Below are positions 36,924-64,000 of a stretch of DNA of 64,000 nt, piece by piece (position 1 is the stretch's first letter; every line of letters begins with the position of its first letter). This DNA is from Myxococcales bacterium. GTDB lineage: Bacteria; Myxococcota_A; Bradymonadia; UBA7976; UBA1532. The stretch spans positions 517,359 through 581,358 of the forward strand of contig JACKDP010000001.1 of NCBI GenBank assembly GCA_020633435.1. Direction: 5' to 3'. The notes beneath the pieces were generated by a model. The model saw nothing but the letters and a program-made list of their open reading frames with translations. It made no database searches and was not told where the DNA came from. Position numbers and translations under genes: made by a program.

Positions 36924-36933
36924 CGGAGCACCC

Positions 36934-38348: not shown

Positions 38349-38423
38349 CAGCCCTCCATCCGTCCCCGTCCGCGCACATGCTGCCGTTGGCGAGCCTATA
38401 GCAGTCGGTCTGTGGAGGTCCAA

Positions 38424-42595: not shown

Positions 42596-42603
42596 GAGCG
42601 GGG

Positions 42604-47744: not shown

Positions 47745-47766
47745 ACCGGCATGTAGGAGAAAGGAC

Positions 47767-48168: not shown

Positions 48169-48245
48169 TCCCTTAGTTTCGAGCATTACTTGGGGTGAGG
48201 GATTTGCTCGCTTGCCTGGGTAGCGTGCCTCGCAGGAGGTGCAAC

Positions 48246-49553
48246 ATGCCCAACTTCCCGAGCCGCATCGACATCGCCAACTCGCCCGAGTATTTCCCGA
48301 TCACGGCGCTCATCGCCGCGGGCCTGTGGCCCGACCTGACTCCGCCCGCCAAGGCCCTGCTGCCCGTCCTGTGGGACTTCCACCGGGAGTACCCCGACGC
48401 CTGCCACCCGAACCGGAAGACCCTCGCCCGGCTGTCGGGCATCAGCCCGCCCTCCGTGTCGAACGCCCTGACGGTGCTGGAGGACATCGGCATCGTGCAG
48501 ACGATCCAGACGCCGGGGCCGAGGCCGAACACCTACAAGCTCAAGTGGACGAATCTCCGGGCGCCGAAGAAGGCTGCCGCCGACACCGGATCGCCCTACC
48601 GGCGTCCGAGTGCGGACTGGGAACTGCACATGGGGACTGACGCCGAGGGCCATGCGGTCGCCAAGTACGAGCGCAAGGGGGGTGGGCTCCACCGCATGTC
48701 CGACGGCTGCTTCATCCGGGGCCAGGTCGAGATGGTGATCCACGACCTGCTCGTGGCCTGGGGCGTTCCCCACTGGTCGGAGGTCGGGTACTGCGACCTC
48801 GGCATCAAGCTCCGGCACGCGAAGTCCGGCGACCTCAACCGGCAGGCCACCGTGGACTTCGTGGTGGCGCCGGGCTTGCTCGTCGAGCGCCTCGGCCTGC
48901 CAGCGACCCAGGGGTCGGCGAAGAAGTACCGGGCCAAGTCCGCCGCGAAGATGAAGGCCGCCCGGAAGGCCGGGTGGACGGTGCTGACCATCGAGCCTGA
49001 CCAGCGGCCCGGCGACTGGCTGCTGGAGCCCATCAGGAAGGCGTGGGCCGACGCGACCATCGACGAGGCGACCCGCCTCCGGCGGCTCCTCCAAGGCGCT
49101 GGGAAGCACGAGGAGTCGCACGGTCCGAGCCGGAAGCTCGACGCCCACATCGAAGATGCGAAGGCCCGGCTGGCGGGCAAGAAGGAGCCCCGCAAGAGCC
49201 GCGGCCTGACCATGCAGAAGCGCGGCGAACATGGGTTCCCCGTGACGTACCGCTGCGACCCCATCATCGTGCTGATGGAGCAGGCCCGCCCCGCACCCGA
49301 GCCCGAGGATGACCTCGACGACTGGTTCGACGAGGTGCCGAGCGCCTACGAGCCGCAGCGCCCGCCCGACCTGCCCGCTCCCGACGAGAGGATGCTCGGG
49401 CGGCTCCGCGACCTGGACGACGAGATCGCCGACCTCGACGACCAGATGGCGGCCCTCGACGATGACAGCGACGACTACCAGGCCCTGCTGACGCAGAAGT
49501 GGGAACTCGAAGGGAAGAAGGGCGACCTGGAGGCCCAGTGCTACATGCGGTGA
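48246..49553 (+). CDS. hypothetical protein with N-terminal winged-helix-like region (possible replication/maintenance function)
   Basis: AGGAGG RBS before ATG 48246; HTH-like NRKTLARLSGISPPSVSNALTVLEDIGIV; acidic C-terminal tail. Confidence 0.45.
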   Translation: MPNFPSRIDIANSPEYFPITALIAAGLWPDLTPPAKALLPVLWDFHREYPDACHPNRKTLARLSGISPPSVSNALTVLEDIGIVQTIQTPGPRPNTYKLKWTNLRAPKKAAADTGSPYRRPSADWELHMGTDAEGHAVAKYERKGGGLHRMSDGCFIRGQVEMVIHDLLVAWGVPHWSEVGYCDLGIKLRHAKSGDLNRQATVDFVVAPGLLVERLGLPATQGSAKKYRAKSAAKMKAARKAGWTVLTIEPDQRPGDWLLEPIRKAWADATIDEATRLRRLLQGAGKHEESHGPSRKLDAHIEDAKARLAGKKEPRKSRGLTMQKRGEHGFPVTYRCDPIIVLMEQARPAPEPEDDLDDWFDEVPSAYEPQRPPDLPAPDERMLGRLRDLDDEIADLDDQMAALDDDSDDYQALLTQKWELEGKKGDLEAQCYMR

Positions 49554-49744
49554 GGGTGCCTCGACGCGGTGCCCGCTTCGGCCTCCCGCTCGCGCACGAC
49601 CGCTTCGAGGTCGTACCGGACGGCGCCGCGGAGCCTCACCACGGGGATCTGCCCGTCCCGAGTCATGCGGCGGACCGTCGAGAGGCTCACGCCGAGGGCG
49701 TCTGCAAGCTCCGTGGCGGTGAGCAGGCGGTGCATGTTGCTCAT
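49541..49744 (-). CDS. excisionase-family HTH protein
   Basis: 67 aa from ATG with GGGGAGG RBS; LLTATELADALGVSLSTVRRMTRDGQIPVVRLRGAVRY. Confidence 0.6.
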   Translation of the reverse strand: MSNMHRLLTATELADALGVSLSTVRRMTRDGQIPVVRLRGAVRYDLEAVVREREAEAGTASRHPHRM

Positions 49745-49990
49745 GTTGGCCTCCCCGGAAGTCGAGTCCATGCACAGATCGCGGCCCATAGGACGACCAA
49801 CCGGGTCGAAACGGTCAGCGACGGTCACACAGTCGCCGCCGCGGCCTCGGGGCGTCCAGAACCGTCGCTGCGGATGGTTCTCGCCGGGCCAACCGTGGGG
49901 GTTGGGACGCCGAACGGTGGGGGTTGGCCGAAGGTAGGTGGATTCGGCCCGGTGCGGCCCGCGGGGTTGTGGCCCGCGGACATGCGCGGT

Positions 49991-50629
49991 TCAGCGGGCT
50001 TCGGCGACGGCGACTTCTGGCCCACCCACCGGACGGGCCTCGGCGAGCCTGCGTCGCAGGGTCGTCCGCGGGAGGCCGAGCATGTCGGCGACCTCGCGGA
50101 CGCTGTGCCCTTGGGCGATGAGGGCCTGGGCTGCACGAAGGTCGAGGCCACGCCGCGGGCGCCCGAACTTCACGCCACGCTCGCGGGCGCGAGCGACGCC
50201 TGCCTGGACGCGCTCTTGGATCAGGGCGTGCTCAAGTTCGGCGACCACCGCGGCGAGCGTGAACAGCGCCTTCCCGAGGGCGGTGGTCGTCTCGATGTTC
50301 TCCCTGACGGACACGAACTCGACCCTGCAACGGCGGAACTCGTCGAGGGCCTCCAGCAGGTGCTGGGTCGAGCGGGCGAACCTGTCGAACCGCCACACCA
50401 TCACCACGTCCACCTCGGCGCCGCGGACGGCGGCCATGAGGCCGTCCAGGCCGGGCCGGGCCTCGGTGGTGCCGGACACGCCGTCGTCGATGAACTCGTG
50501 AACGACCTGCCAGCCGCGCTGCGCGGCCACTCGGCGAAGGTCATCAAGCTGGAGCCCCACGTCCTGCCCGTGCCCGGCGGTGCTCACCCTGGCGTACAAC
50601 GCCGCCCGCGTCTTCCGGCTCGTCGCCAT
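49991..50629 (-). CDS. serine recombinase (resolvase/invertase family)
   Basis: AALYARVSTAGHGQD (catalytic Ser region), C-terminal HTH. Confidence 0.85.
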   Translation of the reverse strand: MATSRKTRAALYARVSTAGHGQDVGLQLDDLRRVAAQRGWQVVHEFIDDGVSGTTEARPGLDGLMAAVRGAEVDVVMVWRFDRFARSTQHLLEALDEFRRCRVEFVSVRENIETTTALGKALFTLAAVVAELEHALIQERVQAGVARARERGVKFGRPRRGLDLRAAQALIAQGHSVREVADMLGLPRTTLRRRLAEARPVGGPEVAVAEAR

Positions 50630-50690
50630 CCCGTCCTCCGCGTCGTCTCCCCCAACTACGGAGTGGGCCGGAAGTCTGAGCCCCGCGGGC

Positions 50691-50785
50691 TTCTGGCCCG
50701 GAGATTCTCGGGGGCGGGCGAGATTCTCCCTGATCGGGTTCTCGGCGTCTTGGCAGGCACCTTCCGCCGCGGGAAACGTCGCCAG
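50691..50785. repeat. three direct copies of GAGATTCTC, followed at about 50848-50882 by a palindrome CCGATC-N8-GATCGG
   Basis: Copies near 50691, 50710 and 50776, upstream of the serine recombinase gene. Confidence 0.5.
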
Positions 50786-51016
50786 CGAGATTCTCGACCG
50801 TCAGGATCGGTTCTTCGGCGAGAAGTTCCCTCTCCGGCGTGTCAGAACCGATTGAAAACCGATCTGGGTTCGGATCGGGGGGCGCGATCCGGGGACTCCG
50901 GGTCACGGACATTTTGCGACCGAGCGGGCCAACGGTCTGCGGCAGGGGGTTGACTCGGGCACACCCTCGGGCCAAGATGTATCCATTGGATACAGGGCGC
51001 CTGATGGCGCAGGGAG

Positions 51017-51298
51017 ATGGTGGTGAGAGAGTACACGGAGCCGGAAGGGGATGCGGCCCAGAACCTCGGCCAGTGGAGACGTGAGTGGGAAGAAATCCCC
51101 CCCTTCCCGTTCAGCGAGTATGACGCATCGGATCGAGCCGTTGACCGCCTCGTGGTGAACTTGCACCTGGCCCTCGACGAGGAGGACGAGATTCGAGAGG
51201 TGCTGGAGCACCTGCGATGCCTCGCTACCGACTACCACAAGTGGTCGGTTCGGGCGGGCAAGCTGCTGGAACACGTCGAAGCTCAGGCCCAACGGTAG
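51017..51298 (+). CDS. small hypothetical protein
   Basis: 93-aa acidic ORF, RBS-like GGGAG at the start. Confidence 0.35.
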   Translation: MVVREYTEPEGDAAQNLGQWRREWEEIPPFPFSEYDASDRAVDRLVVNLHLALDEEDEIREVLEHLRCLATDYHKWSVRAGKLLEHVEAQAQR

Positions 51299-51302
51299 AC
51301 TC

Positions 51303-51587
51303 GTGGCTACGTCCTCTCGGTCCAAGGAACTGCCGACCGGCGCCGAGCAAGTTCGCCTGATCTTGGCGGAACTCGGCTGGACGCATGAGGTGGCGGCGGA
51401 GCACCTCGGCGTGGGCCGCGTGACCGTCAGCCGGTGGGCGAGCGGCGCCCGCGACCCCGGCGAGCAGGTACTCCGGCACCTGCGGATGATCCATCACCTC
51501 CGGGGCCTGCTCGGCGACGACCTCTGGCAGCAGGCGATGGCCGACCTGGCGAGCAGTCAGGGCTCGGAGCGGGGAGCCGCCAAATGA
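51303..51587 (+). CDS. HTH DNA-binding protein
   Basis: AEQVRLILAELGWTHEVAAEHLGVGRVTVSRWASG, HTH-like. Confidence 0.5.
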   Translation: MATSSRSKELPTGAEQVRLILAELGWTHEVAAEHLGVGRVTVSRWASGARDPGEQVLRHLRMIHHLRGLLGDDLWQQAMADLASSQGSERGAAK

Positions 51588-52072
51588 CCGAACATGCGCA
51601 GCTCGACATCCCCGCCTTGGTGGAGGAGATCAACGCCGCCGAGGACGACCCGATGTGGAAGGCGTGGACGAAGGATCGCCTGCGGCTCCAAGACCAACTT
51701 CACGAGCTTCGCGCCGTCCGAGATGCTCTCGCCCGCAAGCTCCGGGCATTGGCGCCCACGACGCCGGGCGGGGACAAGAGGCCCATGACCCGGCGGGAGC
51801 AGCGGATGGCGATGGGCGGCGGCGGCCTGTGGCCGCTGGCCCAGGCTGCGGAGATGCTGCCCATGAAGGACAACGAGGCGAGGGGCTGGCTGCGCAACGA
51901 AGGGCTCGTCGGCGACCTGGCCGGGCGTGAGGTCGTGCATTGGGGCCGCGTGCTCGACGCGCCCTACGCCACGAAGGATGAGGCGCCGTCGGTGCCTGCG
52001 AAGCAGGAGACACGGCGCCGGAAGCCGCTCCCGCGGGTGCGCCTCGGTGGCTCGTCGGGGGCGTCACGATGA
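51584..52072 (+). CDS. hypothetical protein
   Basis: ATG overlaps the previous stop; stop overlaps the integrase start. Confidence 0.4.
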   Translation: MTEHAQLDIPALVEEINAAEDDPMWKAWTKDRLRLQDQLHELRAVRDALARKLRALAPTTPGGDKRPMTRREQRMAMGGGGLWPLAQAAEMLPMKDNEARGWLRNEGLVGDLAGREVVHWGRVLDAPYATKDEAPSVPAKQETRRRKPLPRVRLGGSSGASR

Positions 52073-53202
52073 GCCCTCCAAGGAGTGCGCGACCCAAGCC
52101 CTTCTCGCTCGACATGATCAAGTGCCGGATCGTCCGCGGGCCGCACCCGGACGACCCGAACCGTTGGTACTGGCAGGCGGTCACCTACGGAGACGGTGAG
52201 CAGCGCACCATCTGGACGGGTTGGGGGTCGGTCGAGGAGGTGAAGGCCGCGCTGGCGCCGTTGCTGATGGGGATGCAGGCGGCCCCGTCGCGCCGTGAAG
52301 ACCGGGTGTCCACTGTGCAGGATCTCCTTGAGGTCTGGTTGGCGTGGCAACTCGGCCAACCGAACCTGAGCGAAGGGCGCAAGCTCAACTCGAAGAAGGA
52401 GGCAGAGCACGTCGCCGCCGTGATCGGTGATGTGCTCATCCTGCGGCTCGACACGACGACCCTGACGGAGTACCAGCGCGTGCGGCTGCGCGAGGGGGCC
52501 TCGACCGGCGTGATCCGCAACGAGATCAGCACCGTGATCCAGGCGTGGAACTGGGGCGGGGAGCGTGGGCTCGCACCGGAGCGGCGGCTGCGACGCCCCC
52601 GTTTGCAGCACAAGTCTGTGCGGAACGACTACGTTCCCGACCTGGTGGAGTTCTGGAAGGCCGTGGACGCGCTGCCCGACTCCAGACCCTGGGCTCGCAC
52701 CATGCTCCTCCTGCTGGGTGCGACGGGGGCGAGGCCAAGCGAGATCGCCGCCCTGACCTGGGAGGACATCCACTGGCGACGCCGTACCGTCCGTCTGGAC
52801 GGCAAGACCGGGAAGCGCCTGGCAGTCGTGAGCCAAGAGGTCTTGGACGAGTTGGCGCCGCACCGCCCCGACCCCGCGACTGGCCGCGTCCTCTCCGTGA
52901 GCTTGACCACGGCACGGGTGGACATCCGCAAGATCCTGCGGGACGCCTGCGTTGCGGCCAACGTGACGCCGTTCCTCCCGATGTCCATCCGCAAGATGGT
53001 CGAGAACGCGATGTTCGACGCTGGGGCCGACCCCGGCGTCGTCTCCCGGCAGCTTGGGCACACGCCGGAGGTGTCCTTGAGGCACTACCGCAGGGCGAAG
53101 TCGGCTCGCGTGGACGAGGTTCTCGCTCGTGCGGGCATCGGCACCAGGCCGGACGGCAACGTCGTGTCGCTGGCCGAGCACCGCAAGGCCAAGGACTCGT
53201 GA
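52069..53202 (+). CDS. tyrosine-type site-specific integrase
   Basis: Catalytic-domain motifs (LLGATGARPSEIAALTWEDI; LGHT...SLRHY) with the Tyr near the C-terminus. Confidence 0.85.
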   Translation: MSPPRSARPKPFSLDMIKCRIVRGPHPDDPNRWYWQAVTYGDGEQRTIWTGWGSVEEVKAALAPLLMGMQAAPSRREDRVSTVQDLLEVWLAWQLGQPNLSEGRKLNSKKEAEHVAAVIGDVLILRLDTTTLTEYQRVRLREGASTGVIRNEISTVIQAWNWGGERGLAPERRLRRPRLQHKSVRNDYVPDLVEFWKAVDALPDSRPWARTMLLLLGATGARPSEIAALTWEDIHWRRRTVRLDGKTGKRLAVVSQEVLDELAPHRPDPATGRVLSVSLTTARVDIRKILRDACVAANVTPFLPMSIRKMVENAMFDAGADPGVVSRQLGHTPEVSLRHYRRAKSARVDEVLARAGIGTRPDGNVVSLAEHRKAKDS

Positions 53203-53288
53203 CCTGTACAGCCCGACCTGTACAGCCGCAGGAGCGGCTGTCGTAACATGCTGAAACCATGCGACAAGCTGGCACAGGTGGCGGCGTT

Positions 53289-53318
53289 CAACATCAAGTG
53301 GAAGCCGGGCAACGAGCC
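53289..53318. repeat. attR: 30-bp direct repeat, right copy
   Basis: caacatcaagtggaagccgggcaacgagcc, followed in frame by the likely original gene tail (...NEPTTNLYA, stop). Confidence 0.8.
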
Positions 53319-53406
53319 GACGACGAACCTGTACGCGTGAGCGGTTCGGCAAGGGTTTGATTTGATTGCAAATCTCGCCCGCAGCGTGCTGGCGGGGGCC
53401 GGCCGC

Positions 53407-55497
53407 TCAGGACGTGAGGCGGTCGAAAGCCTGCTGGCGGGCCAGGAGCGTAGGCGACGGGGGCTCGCCCGCGAGGCGGTCGAAGCGGTCAGTGAGCAAC
53501 TTCTGCATCAGCTCGGTATGCGCCGCCGGCAGGCGCTCGAAGTGGGGCCAGAGGAGGTCCAGCGCCTCGTCCGCGGCGGCGCGGGCCTCGGCGGCCCGGC
53601 CGAGGGCAGCGAGGACGTCGCCGCTGCTGTCCATCGCGTTTGCAAGGTCAGGCTCGAACGCGTCCGGACGCGACGACGCAAGACGGCGATAGATACCCAC
53701 CGCCTCCGCCGTCGCTGACAACGCCTCCTCAAGACGACCCAACGATGAGATGTCACCGCCCAGGTTGTTGAGGCTCATGGCAAGGTCAGGCTCGAACGCG
53801 TCCGGACGCGACGACGCAAGACGTCGATACACGTCCACCGCCTCCGCCGTCGCTGACAACGCCTCCTCAAGACGACCCAACGATGAGAGCCGATTGCCCA
53901 GGTTGACCAGGCTCATGGCAAGGTCAGGCTCGAACGCGTCCGGTCGCGACGACGCAAGATGCCGATACACGTCCACCGCCTCCGCCGTCGCTGACAACGC
54001 CTCCTCAAGACGACCCAACGATGAGAGCCGATTGCCCAGGTTGACCAGGCTCATGGCAAGGTCAGGCTCGAACGCGTCCGGACGCGACGACGCAAGATAC
54101 CGATACACCTCCACCGCCTCCGCCGTCGCTGACAACGCCTCCTCTCGACGACCCAACGACGAGAGGTCAACGCCCAGGTTGTTCAGGCCACCCGCAAGGT
54201 TCGGCTCGAACGCTTCAAGACGCGACGACGCAAGACGGCGATAGATACCCACCGCCTCCATCGTCGCTGACAATGCCTCCTCAAGACGACCCAACGATGA
54301 GAGTCGATTGCCCAGGTTGTTCAGGCTCATGGCAAGGTCTGGCTCGAACGCGTCCGGACGCGACGACGCAAGACGGCGATCGAGACCCACCGCCTCCGTC
54401 GTCGCTGACAACGCCTCCTCAAGACGACCCAAAGATGAGAGCCGATTGCCCAGGTTGTTCAGGCTCGTGGCGAGGTCAGGCTCAAACGCGTCTGGACGCG
54501 ACAGTGCAAGACGGCGATAGATACCCACCGCCTCTGTCGTCGCTGACAACGCCTCCTCTCGACGACCCAACGAGGAGAGCCCAATGCCCAGGTCGGTCAG
54601 GCTCATGGCAAGATCGGGTTCGAACGCGTCCGGACGCGACGACGCAAGACGGCGATAGATACCCACCGCCTCCGCCGTCGCTGACAACGCCTCCTCTCGA
54701 CGACCCAACGACGCAAGGTCACGGCCCAGGCTGGTCAGCGCCCTCGCAACGTCTGCGTCCGGGCGTGCCGACGCGAGGCCTCTGTAGGACCCCACGGCTT
54801 CCGTTGACGCCGATAACGCTTCTGCGACCTCGTTCGCCAGGCCCATGTGCCCACTCCGCACCAAGGCCGCCAGCGCGCCAACCATCGCGTCGAAGCGCGC
54901 CGGATCCTCGGGAGCAAGCGCGAGCGCCGCTCGCGCCCGTCGCTCGGCGAGCTCCACCTCGGCAGGCGAGGCCCCATCTGACCGTTGCACGGGCGAAGTA
55001 ACATCGGGCTGCGAGACAGGAACCGGCGCGACCATCGGCTCAACAAGCAGGGTGTTGATAGACCAGAGATCGGGCGCAGCCAGCCGCACTACCGGCCGGG
55101 CCCACGCGGGCATGGCCACGACCAGGGCGTGCAGCCCGGATCGGCGCAGCGGCTCTCGGTGCTCGTTCCAGCGTTGTGCCGCGTTGAACCATGCGGTTCG
55201 CCAATCCTGCTCCGGACCAAAGGCCTCGCACCAGACCACGCCCCCTCTGGGCGCCGCCAGGATGCGACCGAGTGCGTCGCTCAGGTCCCCCGGATGCTCG
55301 CAGAGAACGGTCTCGATCGGCCAGCCACGGGCACCCGCCAGCGCCATCGTTCGGGCCCGAAGAATTCGAGCTGGAAAGCGGTCTGCCGCGACCACCGTCG
55401 CGATGACGAACCGATCTGCGAAATCCAGGAGATCACTGAGCAATTCCCAGGGCCGCTCCTCCAGGAGCGGCTGCGCTGCGAGGTGGTCTTCGGCCAC
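53407..55497 (-). CDS. TPR-like repeat protein (about nine 46-aa repeats), partner of the upstream NTPase
   Basis: Repeat unit RPDAFEPDLAMSLNNLGNRLSSLGRLEEALSATAEAV.VYRRLASS; GTG start 4 nt after the NTPase stop (ORF extends to 55554). Confidence 0.65.
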   Translation of the reverse strand: MAEDHLAAQPLLEERPWELLSDLLDFADRFVIATVVAADRFPARILRARTMALAGARGWPIETVLCEHPGDLSDALGRILAAPRGGVVWCEAFGPEQDWRTAWFNAAQRWNEHREPLRRSGLHALVVAMPAWARPVVRLAAPDLWSINTLLVEPMVAPVPVSQPDVTSPVQRSDGASPAEVELAERRARAALALAPEDPARFDAMVGALAALVRSGHMGLANEVAEALSASTEAVGSYRGLASARPDADVARALTSLGRDLASLGRREEALSATAEAVGIYRRLASSRPDAFEPDLAMSLTDLGIGLSSLGRREEALSATTEAVGIYRRLALSRPDAFEPDLATSLNNLGNRLSSLGRLEEALSATTEAVGLDRRLASSRPDAFEPDLAMSLNNLGNRLSSLGRLEEALSATMEAVGIYRRLASSRLEAFEPNLAGGLNNLGVDLSSLGRREEALSATAEAVEVYRYLASSRPDAFEPDLAMSLVNLGNRLSSLGRLEEALSATAEAVDVYRHLASSRPDAFEPDLAMSLVNLGNRLSSLGRLEEALSATAEAVDVYRRLASSRPDAFEPDLAMSLNNLGGDISSLGRLEEALSATAEAVGIYRRLASSRPDAFEPDLANAMDSSGDVLAALGRAAEARAAADEALDLLWPHFERLPAAHTELMQKLLTDRFDRLAGEPPSPTLLARQQAFDRLTS
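53510..54890. repeat. 138-bp tandem repeats (about 9 copies), coding
   Basis: The motif gtcaggctcgaacgcg recurs at 138-bp spacing; central copies nearly identical. Confidence 0.8.
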
Positions 55498-55501
55498 CGG
55501 G

Positions 55502-56800
55502 CTAGCTCGCGGCCTGTGATTCCAGACGGTCTGCGAGATCGAGAACGACGTCACGAACGATGGGGTGGACGTCGTACCACTCCGACCCGTTCTGGTAGCA
55601 GAGCACCAGGTGGCTGTCGAAGTACCGCGCCAGGCTGCCCAGGCCCTCCAGGTCCCTCAACTCGGCCTCGTGGGAGCGAGCGATCCGAGCCAGCCACCGA
55701 ACGTCCTCATGAGGAATCGGGGTGAACTGGGCCCGCAAGCGCTCCAGGGCAGCCCGGCGCGCGTCGGCCGATGCCGGCAGCGTGCGAGCCTCCAGGGCGA
55801 CGGTCTGCAGGACGCGGACGAGGTCGCGCAGGTGCCCGCCCGTCGCCAGAATCAGCTCCTCGAGAGCGTCGCGATCGCCCAGAACCACCGACCAGTCCGT
55901 GCGCTTGCCGACGAGCTGGACGAGACGCTCGATCCCAGGCGCGTAGGGCTGGCCGTCGCCATCGTCGACATAGGCCCGGACCTTCTGAGCGGGCAACGTC
56001 AGCAGGCCCGCTCCCGAATACGGGCTGCCGATGTTCGGCCGGCGGATGCGGAGCCAGGGCGGGACCGTATAGATGACATGGGTGGATGGCAGCTTGAGCT
56101 TGTCATCGTGGTCGGCGAACAAGCGTTCGAGTGACTCATGCACCCGCGCCTCGGTCTCATTGGTCCCACGGGCATGCTCGACCGAGTCGACGAGGACGAC
56201 GAGTGCCGTGCCCGGTCGGGCTGCCTCCAGCGCGAGTACACACTCCGCGACAAACCCACGCACCTCCCTGGCGAACGCGCCCAGGCTGGTCCCGAGCGCC
56301 TTCTGCACTTCCTGGCGAAAGAGCGGGTTGCTCTTGAGCTCTACCTTCATCCCCGCGAGGCTCACGTCCTTCAACGTGACGATGGTCCCGGTGACGAAGC
56401 CCCAGAGGCGCTGGCCGAGCGCGGCTCGCGCCGGGCTCTCCGGCAGGAGCGCTTCGTCGGTGAGCTTCTCGGCCAGGGCACCACAGAGGGCCAGCAGGAA
56501 GTCGGTGATGTCGATGGGGGTGTGGAGATCCAGGTAGTCCTCCACGTCGATGAGAACGACCGTGTAGTCCTCAGCGCCCAACTCACTGCGCAGACGCCTC
56601 AGCTCGGTGCTCTTGCCTGCGCCGCGGTAGCCGGACAGCAGCTGAGCACTCTCGCCCTCGGAGAACAGGATGGTCTCTTTGAGGCGAAGCACGACGTCGG
56701 ACTGGTCCTCGTACAGCGGGTAGTAGCGGGGGTCCTCCGGGTTCAACGGCACGTCAGCCATCTCTCGGAAGAAGCGCTGCCGCCGGTCGCGATCGGTCAT
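55502..56800 (-). CDS. P-loop NTPase (AAA/STAND-like)
   Basis: Walker A LLSGYRGAGKSTEL; Walker-B-like ALVVLVDSVEH; helical C-terminus. Confidence 0.65.
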   Translation of the reverse strand: MTDRDRRQRFFREMADVPLNPEDPRYYPLYEDQSDVVLRLKETILFSEGESAQLLSGYRGAGKSTELRRLRSELGAEDYTVVLIDVEDYLDLHTPIDITDFLLALCGALAEKLTDEALLPESPARAALGQRLWGFVTGTIVTLKDVSLAGMKVELKSNPLFRQEVQKALGTSLGAFAREVRGFVAECVLALEAARPGTALVVLVDSVEHARGTNETEARVHESLERLFADHDDKLKLPSTHVIYTVPPWLRIRRPNIGSPYSGAGLLTLPAQKVRAYVDDGDGQPYAPGIERLVQLVGKRTDWSVVLGDRDALEELILATGGHLRDLVRVLQTVALEARTLPASADARRAALERLRAQFTPIPHEDVRWLARIARSHEAELRDLEGLGSLARYFDSHLVLCYQNGSEWYDVHPIVRDVVLDLADRLESQAAS

Positions 56801-57447
56801 CGGGCCTCCGTCGTCCTCAGGTGCCGCGCAGTATAGGAGCCACGGTCGTCGGACACCACGGCATCGCGCACAGCCGTCATCGACCCTGGAACGCCGCCCA
56901 CGGGCTCATCGGGGCCCCCGAGGGCTCGTGGTACTGACGCGAACCCACCAGGGGGCAACTCCGGGACTCCCCTGAGGGCGTGGCCATCGAAGTGGCGGCC
57001 CGCAGGAACTGGCCACTCGATGGGCGGACCCGGGGGAAGGGGTACGCCGCCACCGGATCGGTGACGGCCGCTCGACAGCCTCCCCAGGCCCACTGCGAAA
57101 GGCAACGGCCTTCCTTTTTGTTTCGTCGACCGCTAGGAAAGGTTCCTCCGCAGCAGTAGGCAGCATGGACCTGGGCAGGACTTCTTCCGAGTGGCTCACC
57201 ACGAGCACGACAGCCGAGTAGGTCCAGGCGTTTCTGCCCGACCCCCCTGGAGCCGGCCCTCAGCCTGACGGCCGAGGACTCGCGGAGCGCGCCAACCGGG
57301 CACTCGGTGCCATCCTGTTTGGCGACTGCACCTGCCGCCTCACGCCTCCGCCTTCCGGCCAGCAGGGCCCAGGTGATAGCGTCGTCCCGCAGACCCCCGC
57401 CAGCAGGCGCGAGGTGTGCCCCCCTTGCCTGGTCCCAAGGAGGCGCC

Positions 57448-58032
57448 ATGAGCACGGTCCTCGTCCTGGCCAACGCCGTGGTCGACCAGCTTCCAGAGAC
57501 CCACAGCCCGGTTCCCTTCGTCGAAGCCTGGGCCGCGGTGGCGAAGGTCGAGGTCGTGCGCCAGGTCTTCGACGATCAGAACGATCTCAGCCAGCTGTTG
57601 AGGCGGTTCGCCACCGGGGGTCCCGCCCGGGTGGTCTGTCTCGCCGGCCATGGCGAGGGTGGCCACCCCGGCAGCCTCGGCCCGGGCATCGACCTGCCAG
57701 CCGCCCTGACAAGCGCCTTCCCGCGCGGAGCGCACCGGCCGCGCCGCCGAGGCCTGCTGACCGTGGGCTGCGAAGTCGACGCGGCGGCGGTCCTGGCCGG
57801 CACGGGCAGTGGCCTGGACTGGATCGCCGGCTGCCGCCGGCGGGTACCGTGGCTCGTCGCGGTCCACCAGGGCCTGCTGTTCCTTCACTCCCTCCTCGTG
57901 GGGCGCCCGACCGGAGACCCCGACCAGGTCCTGTCCACCATCTCCGCCGAGACGGCCGCCAGCTGGGTCTCCGCGGACCACCGGTCGCTGGTGGAGTTCG
58001 GCGTGACCGCGCGCCCGGTCGTCGAGCCGTGA
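57448..58032 (+). CDS. hypothetical protein with possible caspase-like His/Cys dyad
   Basis: GGAGG RBS before ATG; VVCLAGHGEGG and LLTVGCEVDA are spaced like a protease dyad (speculative). Confidence 0.4.
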   Translation: MSTVLVLANAVVDQLPETHSPVPFVEAWAAVAKVEVVRQVFDDQNDLSQLLRRFATGGPARVVCLAGHGEGGHPGSLGPGIDLPAALTSAFPRGAHRPRRRGLLTVGCEVDAAAVLAGTGSGLDWIAGCRRRVPWLVAVHQGLLFLHSLLVGRPTGDPDQVLSTISAETAASWVSADHRSLVEFGVTARPVVEP

Positions 58033-58081
58033 CCGCACTGGTCGCCCTCTCGGAGCCCGTTGATGTTTGCCTCCGGGCTCC

Positions 58082-58095
58082 CTACAGTTCTGTAG
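58082..58095. promoter_or_regulatory. perfect palindrome CTACAGttCTGTAG overlapping the antitoxin RBS (candidate operator)
   Basis: 6-bp arms with 2-bp spacer, about 15 nt upstream of the antitoxin ATG. Confidence 0.45.
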
Positions 58096-58109
58096 AAGGA
58101 GGTGCCCCC

Positions 58110-58400
58110 ATGTCCCGCAGCCAGATCTCCGCTTTCGTCTCCGACGAGACGCGCGCTCGCCTGGAGCGCTACGTCGCCGCGCACGGGATGAAGAAGGCCG
58201 CGGTCGTCGAGCGGGCGCTGCTGCACCACCTCCAGGCGCTCGAGGAGCTTCCCGCTGACATCGTGCTCCCGCCTCGCTTGCTCCTGGAACCCGATGGCTT
58301 CCGTCGCCTGGTCGAACGCGTGGAGGAGGCCGGTGAGCCGACCGCGGCGATGAAGGTGCTCTTCGGTGAGGTGGTTGACCCCGCGAACGATCCGACGTGA
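58110..58400 (+). CDS. ribbon-helix-helix antitoxin (DUF1778/TacA-like)
   Basis: MSRSQISAFVSDETRARLERYVAAHGMKKAAVVERALLHHL, RHH-like; stop overlaps toxin start. Confidence 0.65.
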   Translation: MSRSQISAFVSDETRARLERYVAAHGMKKAAVVERALLHHLQALEELPADIVLPPRLLLEPDGFRRLVERVEEAGEPTAAMKVLFGEVVDPANDPT

Positions 58401-58930
58401 TCGAGGTCCGTCAGCTCCGGGCTGCCGACGACCGGGCGGTGTTCTCGTGCGGCCAGCCCGACCTGGACCGCTTCTTTCTACGCTACGCCGGGCAGAACCA
58501 GTTCAAGCACCACCTCGGCGTCACCTGGGTCGCCGTCGACGGTGACCAGGGGGATCGCATCCTCGGCTTCGCGACAGTGAGCGCGTCGCAGATCGAAGCC
58601 ACCGGGCTGCCACCCGAGCTGCGCCGGCGCCTGCCCCGCTATCCCCTGCCCGTCCTCCGGCTCGCCCGCCTGGGCGTCGACCAGTCGGCGCAGGGGCGTG
58701 GCGTGGGACTGCTGCTCCTGAAGTCCGTGTTCGTCCTGGCTCGGCAGATGGCCCGGGACGTCGGGTGCGTTGGTGTCGTCGTGGACGCGAAGGCGGAGGC
58801 CATGGCCTTCTACGGGCGGTTCGGGTTCGAGGTCATCGACGGGCTGGTTGAAGGCGAGCTGGGCGACCGGCCGGTGGCGACCCCGATGTTTCTGCCGCTC
58901 GGCCTGATTCCAGCCATCGAGCCCGACTGA
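58397..58930 (+). CDS. GNAT-family acetyltransferase toxin (TacT/KacT-like)
   Basis: GNAT core LARLGVDQSAQGRGVGLLLL...AFYGRFGF; GTG overlaps antitoxin stop (GTGA). Confidence 0.7.
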   Translation: MIEVRQLRAADDRAVFSCGQPDLDRFFLRYAGQNQFKHHLGVTWVAVDGDQGDRILGFATVSASQIEATGLPPELRRRLPRYPLPVLRLARLGVDQSAQGRGVGLLLLKSVFVLARQMARDVGCVGVVVDAKAEAMAFYGRFGFEVIDGLVEGELGDRPVATPMFLPLGLIPAIEPD

Positions 58931-58972
58931 GACCAACGCGGGCGCCCCGCAAACCAGCCTACGAGGGTCCCC

Positions 58973-59659
58973 ATGGCCTTTGATCTGCGCCTGTCCGTTG
59001 ACCTCGCCGCTTGCCGCTCGGCCCTGGAGGCCCTTGCGGCATCGACCGGCTGCACCGTGGTGGTCTCTCCCGCCGGTGCCAGCTTCGGCCTGCCCCACGA
59101 CAATGATGCCGCGCGCGTGGCCTTCGCCGGCCTCGTCGCCCTCGTTCGGGCCCATGGCGGGCAGCTCCATGACCCCCAGGCAGGCGCCACCATCGACCTC
59201 GCCAACCCCGGGAGCTGGCCCCCGGCCTGGGTGGACCCCGCCGACGGCCTGCCGCCCCCACCCCGGGTGGTGGCGCAGGTGCAGGTCCGGCTGCGCACCG
59301 ACAACCTCGCGTATGCAAAGCACTTCTGGTGCGAGCGGCTGGGCGGGCGGGTGCTCTTCGCGGGTGACGCGCGGCTGGAGGTGGACCTGTACGGGGTGCG
59401 CGTGGTGCTGCACCTGGGCCCAAAGGCGCGGCCGAAGCCTGCCCTGGTGGGGCCCGGGGGGCAGGATCAGCTGCCCGCCACCTGCCTGACGCTCACGCTG
59501 CCCGCGGGGGACTACGACGCGCTGCTGCGGCGGCTGCGGGCGATGGCGCAGTACTTCTCGTTTCAGCCGCGGCCACGGCAGATCGACGGGGGCGCGCAGG
59601 CCGAGTCGTTCGTGGTGGCCGACTCCAACGTGAACTTCGTCGAGGTGCGGCGCGGCTAG
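58973..59659 (+). CDS. hypothetical protein, possibly VOC/glyoxalase-fold
   Basis: Weak resemblance only. Confidence 0.4.
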   Translation: MAFDLRLSVDLAACRSALEALAASTGCTVVVSPAGASFGLPHDNDAARVAFAGLVALVRAHGGQLHDPQAGATIDLANPGSWPPAWVDPADGLPPPPRVVAQVQVRLRTDNLAYAKHFWCERLGGRVLFAGDARLEVDLYGVRVVLHLGPKARPKPALVGPGGQDQLPATCLTLTLPAGDYDALLRRLRAMAQYFSFQPRPRQIDGGAQAESFVVADSNVNFVEVRRG

Positions 59660-59734
59660 CCGGCGCCCCGCGGCTTGCACCGACCCCCCTCCCCGGTCCA
59701 CCCTCCGGCCGATTTTCGACCGAGAGGAGTCCCC

Positions 59735-60286
59735 ATGGCCCACCCCTGGCACGACCTGCCCAACAACCCCGACACCTGCCACGAGTCGTTCAACGTCGTC
59801 ATCGAGATCCCGCGCGGGTCGAAGGTGAAGTATGAGATCGACAAGCCCACCGGCCTGCTGCGGGTGGATCGCATCTTGTACTCTTCGGTGATGTATCCGG
59901 CCAACTATGGCTTCATCCCCCGCTCGTACTGCGAGGATGGCGATCCGCTGGACGTGCTGGTGCTGGGATCGGAGGCCGTGCACCCGCTGTCCATCATGGA
60001 GGCGCGGGCCATCGGGGTGATGCACATGGAGGATCGCGGCGAGGCGGATGACAAGATCATCGCCGTGCATGTGCATGATCCGGCCTTCGCCGACTACACG
60101 GATGTGTCTCAGATCCCGAGTCATATCGGGCGCGAGATCAAGCGGTTCTTCCTCGACTACACCATCCTGGAGGGCAAGGTGGTGCAGGTGGATGACATTC
60201 AGGGGCGCGACGCCGCCATCGAGGTCATCCGGGAGGCGTTCGCCTTCTACCGCGCCGAGGAGACGAAGCTGCGCGGCTGGCGGTAG
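59735..60286 (+). CDS. ppa: inorganic pyrophosphatase
   Basis: FNVVIEIPRGSKVKYEIDK...DGDPLDVLVL, family I PPase; start at internal ATG with GAGGAG RBS. Confidence 0.9.
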   Translation: MAHPWHDLPNNPDTCHESFNVVIEIPRGSKVKYEIDKPTGLLRVDRILYSSVMYPANYGFIPRSYCEDGDPLDVLVLGSEAVHPLSIMEARAIGVMHMEDRGEADDKIIAVHVHDPAFADYTDVSQIPSHIGREIKRFFLDYTILEGKVVQVDDIQGRDAAIEVIREAFAFYRAEETKLRGWR

Positions 60287-60345: not shown

Positions 60346-62304
60346 ATGCGCGGCGGACTGCTGGGGCTGGCCCTCATGGTGGGCTGTGGGGGCGCGGGGA
60401 CGCGCGGCGGGGCGGCCGAGGACGCCGAGCAGGCGGCCTTCCTGGGGGCCGACGCCCAGGGCGGGCTGGACGCCGCCGGGGCCTGCGCGGTGCGCAAGCA
60501 GGCGCGCGAGGCGACGCCGGCGGCCCTCGCGGCGGCGGGCGTGGGGCCGAAGGCGGTGGCCGCGCTGCTGGCCCACCGCGCCGGGCCCGATGGCCAGCCG
60601 GGCACGCCCGACGACGGCGGCTTCGACACCCTGGCCGAGCTGGACGCGGTGCCGTTCGTGGGCCCCGAGGCCTTCAAGTGGCTGCAGGCCAGCGCCCCGC
60701 CCTGCGGCGACATCGCCGTGCAAGTGCTCGGGATCAATGACTTTCATGGCAACCTGCTGCCACCGTCCGGGTCGGGCGGGCGCATCCAGACGGGGCCGGA
60801 TCGCGAGAAGGACGCCGTCGAGGCCGGCGGCGTCGAGTACCTGGCGACGCACCTGGCGCGCCTGGCGGCGACGTCCCCCAACACCGTCATCGTGGCGGCC
60901 GGCGACCTGGTGGGGGCGAGCCCGCTCATCTCGGCGCTCTTCCACGACGAGCCCGCCATCGAGGCGCTGAGCCTGGCCGGGCTCGACGCCGCCGCCGTGG
61001 GCAACCACGAGTTCGACGAGGGCTGGGCCGAGCTGCTGCGGCTGCAGCGCGGGGGCTGCCACCCCAAGGATGGCTGCCGCACGGCGGTCCCGTTCGCGGG
61101 CGCCGACTTCCAGTACCTGGGAGCCAACGTCATCGTCGAGGCGACGGGCGAGACGCTCTTCCCGCCCACCCTGGTGCGGCGCTTCGGCGGCGTGCGCGTG
61201 GGCTTCATCGGGTTGACGCTGGAGGGCACCCCGTCGGTGACGGTGGCGTCGGGCGTCAAGGGCCTGCGCTTCGGCGACGAGATCGCCACCATCAACGCCC
61301 AGGCCGCGGCGCTCAAGGCGCAGGGCATCGAGACCATCGTCGTGCTCATCCACGAGGGCGGCAAGACGACGGGGCTCTACAACGGCTGCGAGGGGCTCAG
61401 CGGGCCCATCATCGACATCGTGGCCGGCCTCGACGCCGCCGTGGACGTGGTGCTCACCGGCCACAGCCACCAGGCGTACCTGTGCCGCCTCGGGGGCCGC
61501 ATCGTGGCCTCGGGGGCCCACGCCGGGCGGCTGGTGACGGACGTCGACCTGACCATCTCCGAGGTCACCGGCGACGTGGTGTCCATGCAGGCCGAGAACG
61601 TCATCGTCACGCGGGACGTGCCGAAGGCGCCGGCCCTGACGGCCCTCATCGAGCGCTACCAGGCGGTGGCCGCCCCCCTGGCCAACCGCGTCGTCGGCGT
61701 CGTCGAGGGGGATCTGACGCGGGCCTTGTCGCCGGCGGGCGAGAGCAGCCTGGGCAACGTCATCGCCGACGCGCAGCTCGCCGCCACCCGCGCCGAGGGG
61801 GCGGTCATCGCCTTCATGAACCCCGGCGGCCTGCGGGCCGACATCGGCGCGGCGCAGGTCGCGGGCGGCGAGGCGCCGGGCCAGGTGACGTACGGCGAGG
61901 CCTTCACGGCCCAGCCCTTCAACAACCTGCTCGTGAGCATGGACCTCACGGGGGCCCAGCTCGACACCCTGCTGGAGCAGCAGTGGAAGGGCGACCGCGC
62001 CCGCATCCTCTCGGTTTCACAGGGGTTTCGGTATCGCTACGACGCCCGCAAGCCCCTCGGCGATCGCGTCGACGCCCTGACGCTGGACGGCAAGCCCATC
62101 GATCCGGCCGCCACCTACCGCATCACCGTGAACAGCTTCCTGGCCGACGGGGGCGACACCTTCGCCATCCTGGGCGAGGGCCAGCGGCGGGTGACGGGCG
62201 CGGTGGACGTGGACGCGCTGGCCGACTGGCTGGCGGCCCACCAGCCCCTGCCCGTGCCGACCCTCGACCGCATCACCCGCGTGGACGCGCCGAAGCAGCC
62301 CTGA
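60346..62304 (+). CDS. bifunctional metallophosphatase/5'-nucleotidase lipoprotein with N-terminal HhH-like segment
   Basis: Lipobox LALMVGC; NDFHG, GNHEFD, GHSH motifs; N-terminal AAGVGPKAVAALLAHR resembles a ComEA-type HhH. Confidence 0.8.
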   Translation: MRGGLLGLALMVGCGGAGTRGGAAEDAEQAAFLGADAQGGLDAAGACAVRKQAREATPAALAAAGVGPKAVAALLAHRAGPDGQPGTPDDGGFDTLAELDAVPFVGPEAFKWLQASAPPCGDIAVQVLGINDFHGNLLPPSGSGGRIQTGPDREKDAVEAGGVEYLATHLARLAATSPNTVIVAAGDLVGASPLISALFHDEPAIEALSLAGLDAAAVGNHEFDEGWAELLRLQRGGCHPKDGCRTAVPFAGADFQYLGANVIVEATGETLFPPTLVRRFGGVRVGFIGLTLEGTPSVTVASGVKGLRFGDEIATINAQAAALKAQGIETIVVLIHEGGKTTGLYNGCEGLSGPIIDIVAGLDAAVDVVLTGHSHQAYLCRLGGRIVASGAHAGRLVTDVDLTISEVTGDVVSMQAENVIVTRDVPKAPALTALIERYQAVAAPLANRVVGVVEGDLTRALSPAGESSLGNVIADAQLAATRAEGAVIAFMNPGGLRADIGAAQVAGGEAPGQVTYGEAFTAQPFNNLLVSMDLTGAQLDTLLEQQWKGDRARILSVSQGFRYRYDARKPLGDRVDALTLDGKPIDPAATYRITVNSFLADGGDTFAILGEGQRRVTGAVDVDALADWLAAHQPLPVPTLDRITRVDAPKQP

Positions 62305-62316
62305 CGGGCCGGCGGG

Positions 62317-62646
62317 TCAGAGGACCAGCCAGGGGTCGTCGGCGTGCAGGAAGTCGAACCGGCCGTCCGCCGGCGCGGCGGCGACCAGGCGGTCGTGCTC
62401 CACGAAGACGTAGAAGGGCCAGTCCGGCGGATCGGCGCCGCAGGCCGGGCACGTCTCGCCCTCCCCGTCGACGACGACGCGGGCCAGGCCCGGTCGGCCC
62501 TGGTCGTTGCCCCCCCAGGCCAGCGTGTCGCCCAGGCGGTAGTCGAACTGCCAGCAGTCACCGAACTTGAACTGGACGTAGACCTGGACCTGCGCGCTGC
62601 ACCACGGGCAGCACAGGTCGACCGCGACCCGGTTGAACGCCCCCAT
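62317..62646 (-). CDS. small zinc-ribbon-like protein
   Basis: 109 aa from ATG with AGGAGG RBS; CPWC...CPAC. Confidence 0.5.
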   Translation of the reverse strand: MGAFNRVAVDLCCPWCSAQVQVYVQFKFGDCWQFDYRLGDTLAWGGNDQGRPGLARVVVDGEGETCPACGADPPDWPFYVFVEHDRLVAAAPADGRFDFLHADDPWLVL

Positions 62647-62669
62647 CGACCCCTCCTGACGCCTTGCCC

Positions 62670-63002
62670 TCAGTCGAACAGGAACTCCACCGCCATCCCG
62701 TCGGGATCCCGGGTGTAGAGGCGGCCGCGGACGTCCTCCCACGGGGCGCCGAGGGCCGCGAGCCGGGCCTCCAGCGCGGGCCGCTCGCTGGCGGGCAGCG
62801 CGAGGGCGAGGTGGTGGCCGTGGGCCACGCCCACCGGATCGGCCGGCCCCCGCGGCACGATGGCCAGGTGCACGCCGCCCGCGCTCACGAGGGTGTGGCC
62901 GGCCCGCGTGGTGGCCTCCCCGGCCAGCAGCGCGGTGTAGAAGGCGCGGCTGGCGGCCACGTCCGCCGCCGCCACGCCCACATGGTCGACCCGCAGGCTC
63001 AC
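62670..63002 (-). CDS. VOC/glyoxalase-family protein
   Basis: VSLRVDHVGVAAADVAASRAFYTALLAG...MAVEFLFD; GTG overlaps upstream stop (GTGA). Confidence 0.55.
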   Translation of the reverse strand: MSLRVDHVGVAAADVAASRAFYTALLAGEATTRAGHTLVSAGGVHLAIVPRGPADPVGVAHGHHLALALPASERPALEARLAALGAPWEDVRGRLYTRDPDGMAVEFLFD

Positions 63003-64000
63003 CGGTCCAGCCCCAGGGCGATCTCGAGGTTCTCGATCTGGCTCTTCAGGCGCTGCACGTCGTACTCCCGCGTCCACACCTCTTGCTGGGCCAGGTCGCG
63101 CCCGGCCTCGGCCTCGCGCAGGGCGGCCAGGGTGGCGTCCCGGGCCTCCTCGGCGTCGCGCCGGCGCGTCCGCGCCGCGGCCACCAGCACCTCCAGCTCG
63201 CGCAGGCGGCGATCGCCCCCGCTGACCTCGCCGTCGCGCTCCGCCTGCTCGGCCAGGACGCTGGCCAGCTCGCGCTCGGCGGCCAGGGCGCGGCGGCGGG
63301 CCTCGGCCACCTCCAGGCGGACGGCCTCGCGCTGCTCCTCCCGGCGGCGGCGCTCGGCCTCGGCCCCTCCACCCTCCGCCACCCGGGCGGCCAGGCCGGC
63401 GACCTCGGCCTCCAGGGCGGCCCGGCGCACGGCCTCAGGGGTGGCCTCCTCGGCGGCGGCCCGCGCGGCGGCGGCCTGCAGGGCGGCCCGCGAGAACTCG
63501 CCCGTCGGCAGATCATCAAGGGGATCAAGCGCTTGCGGGCGCGCGGCCGGGGCGATAGGGCCCGTGGGGCGGCGTGGCAGCGGGCGCACGACCACCGGCA
63601 CCAGCTCGGCCGGCGGGCGCGACATGACGGTGGGCGGGGGCGGCGGGGCGGCCGGCCGGGACGGCGGCGGCACCGAGACCCGCGGGATGAGGATGGGCCC
63701 GGGCGGGTCGCTCGGCGGCGGCACCGGGATGGCCGCCGGGGCGGGCGCTTCTCGCGGCCGGCGGGCGCAGCAGGCGCGGATCGGCCAGGCAGGTGGCGCC
63801 GGCCGGGCGACCGGTGACGGGGCGCTCGACCACGGGGGGCCTCGTCGGCCTCGCCCAGCAGGCGGGGGTCGATGACGCGGGTCGCGCCCCGGCGGCCCGC
63901 GGGCTCCGGCCGCGGGGCGGCGGCGCGCGGCGCCCGGCCGGGCATGACCCGCACGCGCTGGTCGCCGATCTGGATGACGTCCCCCGCCATCAGCGGGAAC
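62999..64000 (-). CDS. FHA-domain / Pro-rich / coiled-coil protein, 5' end beyond the window, possibly frameshifted
   Basis: FHA-like C-terminal strand GDVIQIGDQRVRV at the window edge in one frame; Pro-rich linker and coiled-coil C-terminus in another. Confidence 0.35.
   Translation of the reverse strand, partial: VPADGGGRHPDRRPARAGHARPGAARRRPAAGARGPPGRDPRHRPPPAGRGRRGPPWSSAPSPVARPAPPAWPIRACCARRPREAPAPAAIPVPPPSDPPGPILIPRVSVPPPSRPAAPPPPPTVMSRPPAELVPVVVRPLPRRPTGPIAPAARPQALDPLDDLPTGEFSRAALQAAAARAAAEEATPEAVRRAALEAEVAGLAARVAEGGGAEAERRRREEQREAVRLEVAEARRRALAAERELASVLAEQAERDGEVSGGDRRLRELEVLVAAARTRRRDAEEARDATLAALREAEAGRDLAQQEVWTREYDVQRLKSQIENLEIALGLDR

Follow-up and report, generated by a model that had tools for sequence, protein, structure and literature searches.

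The 64,000-nucleotide stretch of DNA analysed here (the window) belongs to an uncultured myxobacterium and carries an integrated element of 15.8 kb, bounded by two copies of a 30-bp direct repeat (attL and attR), that interrupts the AhpC/TSA thioredoxin-like gene Tlp in its 3' end. An earlier note on this DNA had remarked that accessory-looking sequence continues for about 5.6 kb beyond attR (53319-58930), up to a VOC-like gene (VOC228) and the inorganic pyrophosphatase gene ppa. The stretch from attR to VOC228 is probably a two-layer accessory region at a variable chromosomal spot, and neither one island nor the tail of the integrated element. The older layer (53341-56871) encodes a P-loop NTPase and a partner protein with tetratricopeptide repeats (TPR) and is syntenic in the sister species; only the younger layer (56872-58968), a 2.1-kb cassette that encodes a caspase-like protein (p194) and a putative toxin-antitoxin pair, is lineage-specific, which argues against one island of 5.6 kb. 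Annotation of the integrase-borne element rightly places its boundary at attR; the DNA beyond it should still count as accessory, with two layers that differ in age. The locus is a routine variable spot in a myxobacterial chromosome, and its biology is ordinary.

The stretch beyond attR in close relatives

The sister species is represented by two metagenome-assembled genomes (MAGs) that are 96% identical to each other: L091 (GCA_041389985.1, a 372-kb contig), reached via a homologue of the 5'-nucleotidase downstream of ppa (89% identity), and L092 (GCA_041390005.1, a 25.7-kb contig), reached via a homologue of the NTPase (89%). It is the only sister species available, and all comparators are MAGs or short metagenome contigs. 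The gene order in the sister is Tlp, TPR-NTPase, VOC228, an extra gene of 761 codons, ppa and 5'-nucleotidase. The left core of the window up to 37496 is present there, the integrated element (37497-53288) is absent, and 53289-56871, with the TPR and NTPase genes, follows directly after Tlp at 90-91% identity (in blastn alignments of the shared block, 90.8% to L091 2145-5708 and 89.9% to L092). The place of window 56872-58968 is taken by about 107 unrelated bp. Homology resumes with VOC228 (58969-59663, 86-87.5% nucleotide identity; 87.5% to L091 5815-6509) and continues through ppa (87%) and 60363-64000 (84%). Between VOC228 and ppa, window positions 59664-59715 correspond to a 2.4-kb stretch of the sister with the 761-aa gene (L091 6659-8944; faint Cytochrome_C7 and weak TPR_CcmH_CycH matches, G+C at third codon positions (GC3) 0.92); the gene is missing from the window, where the gap is 75 bp.

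Alignment of the junctions places the left break of the cassette 71 bp upstream of the NTPase start codon and the right break 4 bp before the start codon of VOC228. No copy of the cassette occurs elsewhere in the window or in the fetched loci, except on near-identical contigs of the same strain. Its genes are of accessory type to judge by their relatives: the toxin-antitoxin pair also occurs on a plasmid, and p194 homologues lie beside AbiE genes or between an integrase and a transposase. The synteny comparison that had been proposed for finding the conserved backbone thus locates its return at VOC228, position 58969. Synteny across relatives, one half of what the earlier note would have taken as speaking against accessory DNA (the other half being a core-like composition), is found for 53341-56871, and 56872-58968 is lineage-specific.

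The att site is seen in its empty state in two contigs of the same species from different samples (L087 and L088). They are 99.3-99.5% identical to 36741-37496, lack the 15.8-kb element and continue at 94-95% identity into 53289-53456, which takes in the end of the TPR gene. On the left their homology to the window stops at 37496; L087, L088 and the sister locus in L091 all resume at attR. The native C-terminus of Tlp (...GNEPTTNLYA, then a stop codon) runs on past attR to 53340, and a 194-aa Tlp with this native end is encoded on the empty-site contigs (P0001, 99% identity). Because these contigs pass from Tlp into right-of-attR DNA uninterrupted, the 30-bp repeat bounds only the 15.8-kb element, and the natural neighbour of Tlp is the end of the TPR gene. 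The suspicion that the repeat marks only the latest insertion is borne out by L087, L088, L091 and L092, in all of which an intact Tlp is followed by the DNA found right of attR.

At least three independent indels (the integrated element, the cassette and the sister's extra gene) separate close relatives within about 7 kb of backbone. Of the "older island or hotspot" suggested earlier, the variable site therefore stands; a single older island does not, since the two layers have different histories. Several attributes of a single island are also missing. The composition and codon usage of 53319-58930 do deviate from the core, but the stretch is not absent as a unit from close relatives, because the sister keeps 53341-56871, and it has no bounding repeats and no integrase of its own; there is no tRNA gene in the window.

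Synteny decays quickly past the sister species. A more distant relative (L089, Tlp 80% identical at the amino-acid level) keeps the left-hand order over window 30.2-37.5 kb and has unrelated genes after Tlp. The NTPase-TPR pair recurs in unrelated neighbourhoods in L093 (same metagenome, 67% amino-acid identity) and in L095 (another Myxococcales pair, 55%), and a 43% homologue (L097) adjoins a DNA methyltransferase gene and a Fic gene. A 5'-nucleotidase homologue at 63% identity (L101) stands without ppa or VOC228 in its vicinity; past the sister species, synteny therefore does not help to locate the core. A scan of GTDB genomes with Tlp, among whose representatives the source genus is not included, gave a best match of 69%, and none of 80 loci carried any right-hand gene; Tlp is too widely conserved for such a comparison. 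An exact look-up with ppa yielded nothing but short contigs, about 99.5% identical to the window. Two of these, whose ppa is about 99.3-99.5% identical to the window's, have ends that diverge completely: L085 (1-100) upstream of ppa and L081 (1858-2035) downstream of 60371. These ends are possibly assembly chimeras, a palindrome artefact or further rearranged variants.

Identity to the sister is a mosaic. In sliding windows against L091 it reaches 95-100% over 36740-37496 and 93-100% over 54850-56800, with flanks at 72-89%, and the same mosaic is seen with L092. Synonymous-codon identity, calculated between the window and L091 among conserved residues, is 0.97 for Tlp, 0.93 for the NTPase and 0.92 for the N-terminal domain of the TPR protein, compared with 0.79 for VOC228, 0.75 for ppa, 0.73 for the 5'-nucleotidase, 0.68 for a coiled-coil gene (62999-63724) and 0.66 for a second VOC gene (VOC135). 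To the right, the high-identity tract stops exactly at the edge of the cassette (56871). The exception within the tract is the C-terminal, repeat-containing part of the TPR gene (81-90% to the sister), whose 3' part is also the most divergent between contigs of the same species (94-95%, against 99.4% left of the att site). Our reading is that the two lineages have recently exchanged Tlp and the NTPase operon by homologous recombination, and that the TPR array evolves fast. Further patches of high identity lie at 62283-62731, in a gene of 141 codons (p141, 62317-62742; synonymous-codon identity 0.93), and at 29633-30082; together the patches suggest that recombination between the window's lineage and its sister is both frequent and recent.

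The history that would best accommodate these data begins with the older layer, which would have stood beside Tlp before the lineage and its sister split, or would have been exchanged between them later by homologous recombination. The cassette would then have entered the window's lineage only, and the insertion of the 15.8-kb element in the 3' end of Tlp, by the element's own tyrosine integrase, would have come last and created the 30-bp repeat. The directions of these indels are the ones we infer, and the content of the site would turn over through homologous recombination in the flanking conserved genes, not through site-specific insertion. Hotspots, or regions of genome plasticity, are sites at which accessory cassettes are swapped by homologous recombination in flanking core genes. 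The present locus resembles them in its several indels at one site, its atypical composition, its addiction- or defence-like cargo and the element in an adjacent gene, as well as in the lack of a mobility gene in most of the region and in an identity mosaic that reaches into the flanking Tlp. It differs in that the older layer is conserved in the sister, and one sister species and a few contigs give no turnover frequency.

Base composition and alternative explanations

The genome is very G+C-rich, with a G+C content of 0.72-0.82 along the left 37 kb of the window; from about 37.5 kb to about 59 kb it falls to 0.64-0.71. The 5.6 kb beyond attR (0.681) are close to the integrated island (0.677) and well apart from the left core (0.761), and they lie below every left-core window of 5.6 kb (mean 0.760, standard deviation 0.011, minimum 0.736); the shared block 53341-56871 has a G+C content of 0.668. 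GC3 averages 0.963 ± 0.014 in 19 left-core genes (minimum 0.927), compared with 0.74 in the TPR gene, 0.85 in the NTPase gene, 0.90 in p194, 0.86 and 0.88 in the two genes of the toxin-antitoxin pair, and 0.90 in VOC228. A codon-choice score, the synonymous codon log-likelihood ratio of core against island, is negative for all genes from TPR (-0.29) through VOC228 (-0.03), although those of VOC228, p194 and the acetyltransferase gene of the pair (-0.03 to -0.05) are marginal, just under the lowest left-core gene (-0.01). The DNA right of attR is foreign-looking in its composition, and by GC3 the atypical stretch extends through VOC228. The sliding-window and codon-usage checks therefore agree with the earlier impression of a less G+C-rich region. 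An A/T-rich patch that had been called notable (57090-57250) is real, with a G+C content of 0.615 that falls in the lowest 2.4% of 161-nt windows, but it is modest, and several places in the window are lower. It lies in the non-coding spacer between the NTPase and p194 genes.

Low G+C on its own misleads at this locus, in two ways. The gene with the lowest value on the right-hand side is ppa (0.632), a backbone gene with a core-like codon-choice score (+0.03); its low total stems from amino-acid composition (GC1 0.64, GC2 0.36, GC3 0.90) and, taken alone, would wrongly flag it as foreign. Core-like GC3 returns with the 5'-nucleotidase gene (from 60319; GC3 0.96, codon-choice score +0.06). Secondly, the NTPase-TPR pair is low in GC3 in L091, L093 and L095 as well, where neighbouring genes have values of 0.92-0.98. 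With the same deficit in four genomes and at three loci, low G+C is a trait of this family and no proof of recent import.

Several observations weigh against a two-layer accessory region. In the absence of an outgroup with this locus, a deletion in the other lineage would explain each indel equally well. Around the cassette there are no target-site duplication, inverted repeats or recombinase, only short repeats at chance level, and the difference from the sister is a replacement and not a clean insertion, because nothing in the window corresponds to the sister's 107 bp. Homologous exchange is not unique to the NTPase-TPR block, since p141 and 29.6-30.1 kb show such patches too. Both sister assemblies are MAGs in which the TPR gene is frame-shifted, possibly through assembly errors. 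Finally, the synteny of the NTPase-TPR pair in the only close relative and its family-wide low GC3 would also fit a vertically inherited, weakly expressed pair.

This last point can be extended to the whole 5.6 kb, which would then be vertically inherited chromosome with gene-specific low G+C (a repeat-rich TPR gene, weakly expressed regulators, a spacer), the sister having lost 2.1 kb. Such an account is unlikely, though it has real points in its favour: besides the position of the pair in the sister and its equal GC3 deficit wherever it occurs, there are no mobility genes or bounding repeats, and the neighbours of the module at 17 metagenome loci are unrelated, ordinary housekeeping genes, whose 25 commonest families include none of integrases, transposases or defence proteins. 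It has difficulty with the GC3 of the genes from TPR to the toxin-antitoxin pair, all below the minimum of the 19 core genes, and with their negative codon-choice scores, only marginally so for p194 and the acetyltransferase gene. The pair also sits at unrelated loci in L093, L095 and L097, the nearest relative past the sister (L089) has other genes after Tlp, and the cassette genes belong to families of mobile type, namely a toxin-antitoxin pair known from a plasmid and a protein with homologues near AbiE, integrase and transposase genes.

The 5.6 kb could instead be the remains of an older integrative element at the same Tlp att site, once part of a tandem array, that has lost its far boundary and its integrase. 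The position directly beside a proven integration site, a G+C content like the resident island's, 576 bp of non-coding DNA that hold an orphan terminator-like hairpin, and a content resembling defence or addiction genes would all suit a decayed element. We nevertheless consider it very unlikely. No third or degenerate 30-bp core or bounding repeat was seen in or around 56.7-59.1 kb, though no dedicated mismatch-tolerant search for the core was made, and none of the 20 largest repeat families of 30-64 kb contains a copy of it. There is no integrase fragment, the spacer has no coding signal, the four CCTGTACAR arm-type sites predicted for the integrase (see below) are confined to the current element, and the two halves of the stretch differ in their history in the sister.

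It is least credible of all that metagenome assembly created the synteny and the near-identical patches, for example in chimeric contigs that mix co-occurring populations, and that the comparison therefore reveals little of the history: the metagenomic origin of all relatives, the many indels of L092, the divergent ends of L081 and L085 and the frame-shifted TPR genes invite the suspicion, but two independently assembled MAGs agree on gene order and identity mosaic, the empty att site is found in two more contigs from different samples, and the breakpoints are sharp and lie at gene boundaries.

Genes of the older and younger layers

The gene content given in the earlier note (an NTPase-TPR pair, a small His/Cys protein, a toxin-antitoxin module, a VOC-like gene and ppa) was found in full (Table 1). 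No sigma-70-like promoter sites were found in a promoter scan and no Rfam family matches 53.2-60.4 kb; terminator-like sites are not enriched in the region (three, with 2.1 expected from shuffled sequence). Among PADLOC models, only a generic TPR model and, weakly, PDC-M11A for the acetyltransferase gave matches, and none matches the NTPase.

Table 1. Positions of the att site, the integrated element, the two layers and the genes up to ppa in the window
Feature	Position	Strand	Remarks
Tlp, AhpC/TSA thioredoxin-like gene, as interrupted	36934-37512		
attL core, 30-bp direct repeat	37468-37497	+	in 3' end of Tlp; read directly
SNF2 helicase	39080-42595		inside element
ResIII/SWI2-SNF2 protein fused to S24 peptidase domain	44424-47744		inside element
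Resolvase	49991-50629		inside element
Tyrosine integrase	52069-53202		belongs to element left of attR; only integrase in window
attR core, second 30-bp copy	53289-53318	+	one mismatch to attL
Native 3' end of Tlp (...TTNLYA, stop)	53319-53340	+	from translation; backbone rather than accessory
Older layer, shared block between Tlp and VOC228	53341-56871		
TPR partner protein	53407-55497	-	Pfam TPR_10 5.7e-38, TPR_12 3.3e-30
Eight tandem units of 138 bp (46 aa)	53558-54823		inside TPR gene; 62-80% identical to reference unit
AAA+/STAND-like P-loop NTPase, 432 aa	55502-56800	-	Walker A GYRGAGKST; first gene of two-gene operon
Non-coding spacer, 648 bp	56801-57447		no codon-position G+C signal
Younger layer, 2.1-kb lineage-specific cassette	56872-58968		576 bp non-coding, p194 and RHH-GNAT pair
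Terminator-like hairpin followed by T run	57099-57112		in A/T-rich patch of spacer
p194, caspase/CHAT-like His-Cys protein, 194 aa	57448-58032	+	
RHH-like putative antitoxin, 96 aa	58110-58400	+	AGGAGG upstream; 4-nt overlap with GNAT gene
GNAT acetyltransferase, 177 aa	58397-58930	+	Pfam Acetyltransf_7, Acetyltransf_1
VOC228, weakly glyoxalase/VOC-like	58973-59659	+	Pfam Glyoxalase 1.7e-3
ppa, inorganic pyrophosphatase	59735-60286	+	backbone; Pfam 1.9e-57

The NTPase is 100% identical to the NCBI protein H6706_02250 of a Myxococcales MAG and has 236 detectable relatives. Among the 120 that were listed, seven carry a name from their source, five of these being "hypothetical protein" and one "AAA family ATPase". 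Its Pfam matches are weak: AAA_16, which recurs as a weak match in all 42 sampled members, and nSTAND_NTPase5, in 22 of the 42. The best structural matches are TnsC and AAA+ proteins of the Orc1/Cdc6 type, not STAND proteins; a search of the PDB by sequence gave no match. No family member was found in a scan of viral contigs, and a literature search on "nSTAND" returned nothing specific to this family.

The partner consists of a conserved N-terminal domain of about 170 residues, which matches no known family, and, after it, TPRs in an array whose length varies. The first of these parts aligns with its counterparts in L093 and L095; its invariant residues are N130, R133 and D162-L163-W164. An alternative GTG start at 55554 would give the gene a 53-nt overlap with the NTPase gene. 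In both sister MAGs (L091 and L092) the TPR gene is split by frame shifts, a sign of either pseudogenisation or assembly error. Of 80 metagenome loci with the NTPase, 58 extend at least about 0.5 kb past its downstream end, and 45 of the 58 encode the N-terminal domain immediately after it and on the same strand; in the other 13 the NTPase is less than 35% identical, there is too little room, or only the 3' end of the NTPase gene is present (L151). Nearly all complete partners (28 of 30) contain TPR_12.

The pair would best be read as a STAND-like ATP switch in two pieces, with the TPRs as its sensor. In STAND NTPases (MalT, bacterial NLR-like/Avs proteins and the nSTAND families of Pfam) a repeat sensor of TPR, WD40 or LRR type is fused to the C-terminus of the NTPase, whereas here NTPase and TPR array are separate polypeptides, not only in the window but also in L093, L095 and the 45 metagenome loci. 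No effector domain was recognised in them, the only domains found with Pfam, NCBIfam and PADLOC being ATPase and TPR. The module further differs from known STAND and Avs systems in its lack of a PADLOC match for the NTPase and in its neighbourhoods, which are not defence islands. In the mechanism we favour, the pair would work as a STAND-type switch in two parts, and the fast-evolving array would be the sensor. As a conserved split NTPase/TPR module it is a lead worth following.

The small His/Cys protein of the cassette, p194, belongs to a rare family: a search of 1.84 billion proteins gave 25 representatives at E <= 1e-3. It has the caspase-haemoglobinase fold of peptidase clan CD, and His68 (in AGHG) and Cys108 (in GxC), in the His-then-Cys order of that clan, are invariant in 23 of 23 sequences. 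The window protein matches neither the CHAT (PF12770) nor the Peptidase_C14 model, and five of the 23 members show a weak match to DUF6642, a family mentioned in no paper that the literature search covered. A profile of the family has no sequence match in the PDB, and no members were found on viral contigs (scan) or on plasmids (tblastn). p194 is predicted to be a minimal, stand-alone caspase/CHAT-like cysteine protease. It shares its fold and its His/Cys pair with the CHAT and clan CD peptidases (SAVED-CHAT, gingipain, separase and metacaspases), but it matches no CHAT or C14 model, and it is a second lead, as a rare minimal caspase-like family. Two homologues have usable flanks; one adjoins AbiEi/AbiEii (L099), and the other lies between an integrase gene and an rve transposase gene (L100).

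The last two genes of the cassette encode a ribbon-helix-helix (RHH)-like protein and a GNAT acetyltransferase. All 16 matches of the latter in a phmmer search of the PDB are GNAT acetyltransferases of about 165-195 residues. The best are 6g96 (1.1e-20) and KacT (5zgn, 1.5e-14), with 5fvj, 6ajm and 7byy; KacT is named in its entry, and 6g96, 5fvj, 6ajm and 7byy are likewise toxins of toxin-antitoxin systems. The GNAT protein is thus homologous to toxins of the TacT/KacT/AtaT type, and a small open reading frame of 96 codons lies upstream and overlaps its start by 4 nt, as expected for an antitoxin gene. The RHH protein shows only a weak RelB-like match in NCBIfam (4.4e-4, below the model cut-off), with no Pfam match at E <= 0.01 and no PDB sequence match, which places it outside DUF1778, the TacA family. 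The locus is therefore like TacAT, KacAT, AtaRT and ItaRT in its GNAT toxin matches and in the overlapping upstream gene with an RHH-like N-terminus, but unlike them in an antitoxin that falls outside DUF1778. On sequence grounds we regard RHH and GNAT as a putative type II toxin-antitoxin pair with a toxin of the TacT/KacT/AtaT type. The pair is 65% identical at the nucleotide level to one on plasmid pTs417 of Candidatus Thiodictyon syntrophicum, where its neighbours are AbiEi/AbiEii and a gene for an Rpn transposase-like protein. In the window's pair, charged tRNA would be the substrate that the GNAT toxin acetylates, and the RHH protein would neutralise the toxin, an arrangement that would favour persistence of the cassette.

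p194 stands beside toxin-antitoxin modules both here and in L099. One may imagine a protease trigger acting on the antitoxins, next to a widespread split STAND-type sensor system made of the NTPase and its N-domain-TPR partner. The combination of the two is improbable; if it were true, the N-terminal domain of the partner could provide a new output, immune or regulatory.

The integrated element and other parts of the window

Besides the genes listed in Table 1, the element (37498-53288) encodes helix-turn-helix proteins; no virion genes were found among the eight element reading frames that were scanned. In appearance the element is an integrative island and not a classic prophage, and its cargo may serve defence. 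Four CCTGTACAR motifs are paired just inside attL (37569-37586) and attR (53203-53225), and the whole window has five, with 0.25 expected by chance. The four are probably arm-type binding sites of the integrase.

Right of the 5.6 kb, the product of p141 has two CxxC pairs and no Pfam match, and is 94% identical to its sister counterpart at the amino-acid level; the GC3 of the gene is 0.86. A VOC/glyoxalase gene that overlaps it (62670-63077) has a GC3 of 0.85 and is only 68% identical to the sister, and the two form a further compositionally atypical mosaic spot. Genes of 141 codons also occur beside Tlp in L089 and beside the NTPase in L095; on comparison they and p141 proved unrelated and do not form one family. 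In the left part of the window, 32647-35163 is a large gene for a Cys/Asp-rich repeat protein with repeat families of 81-156 nt (CDGxxDCxDxSDE-like units); in the left-hand alignment to L092, indels are densest there.

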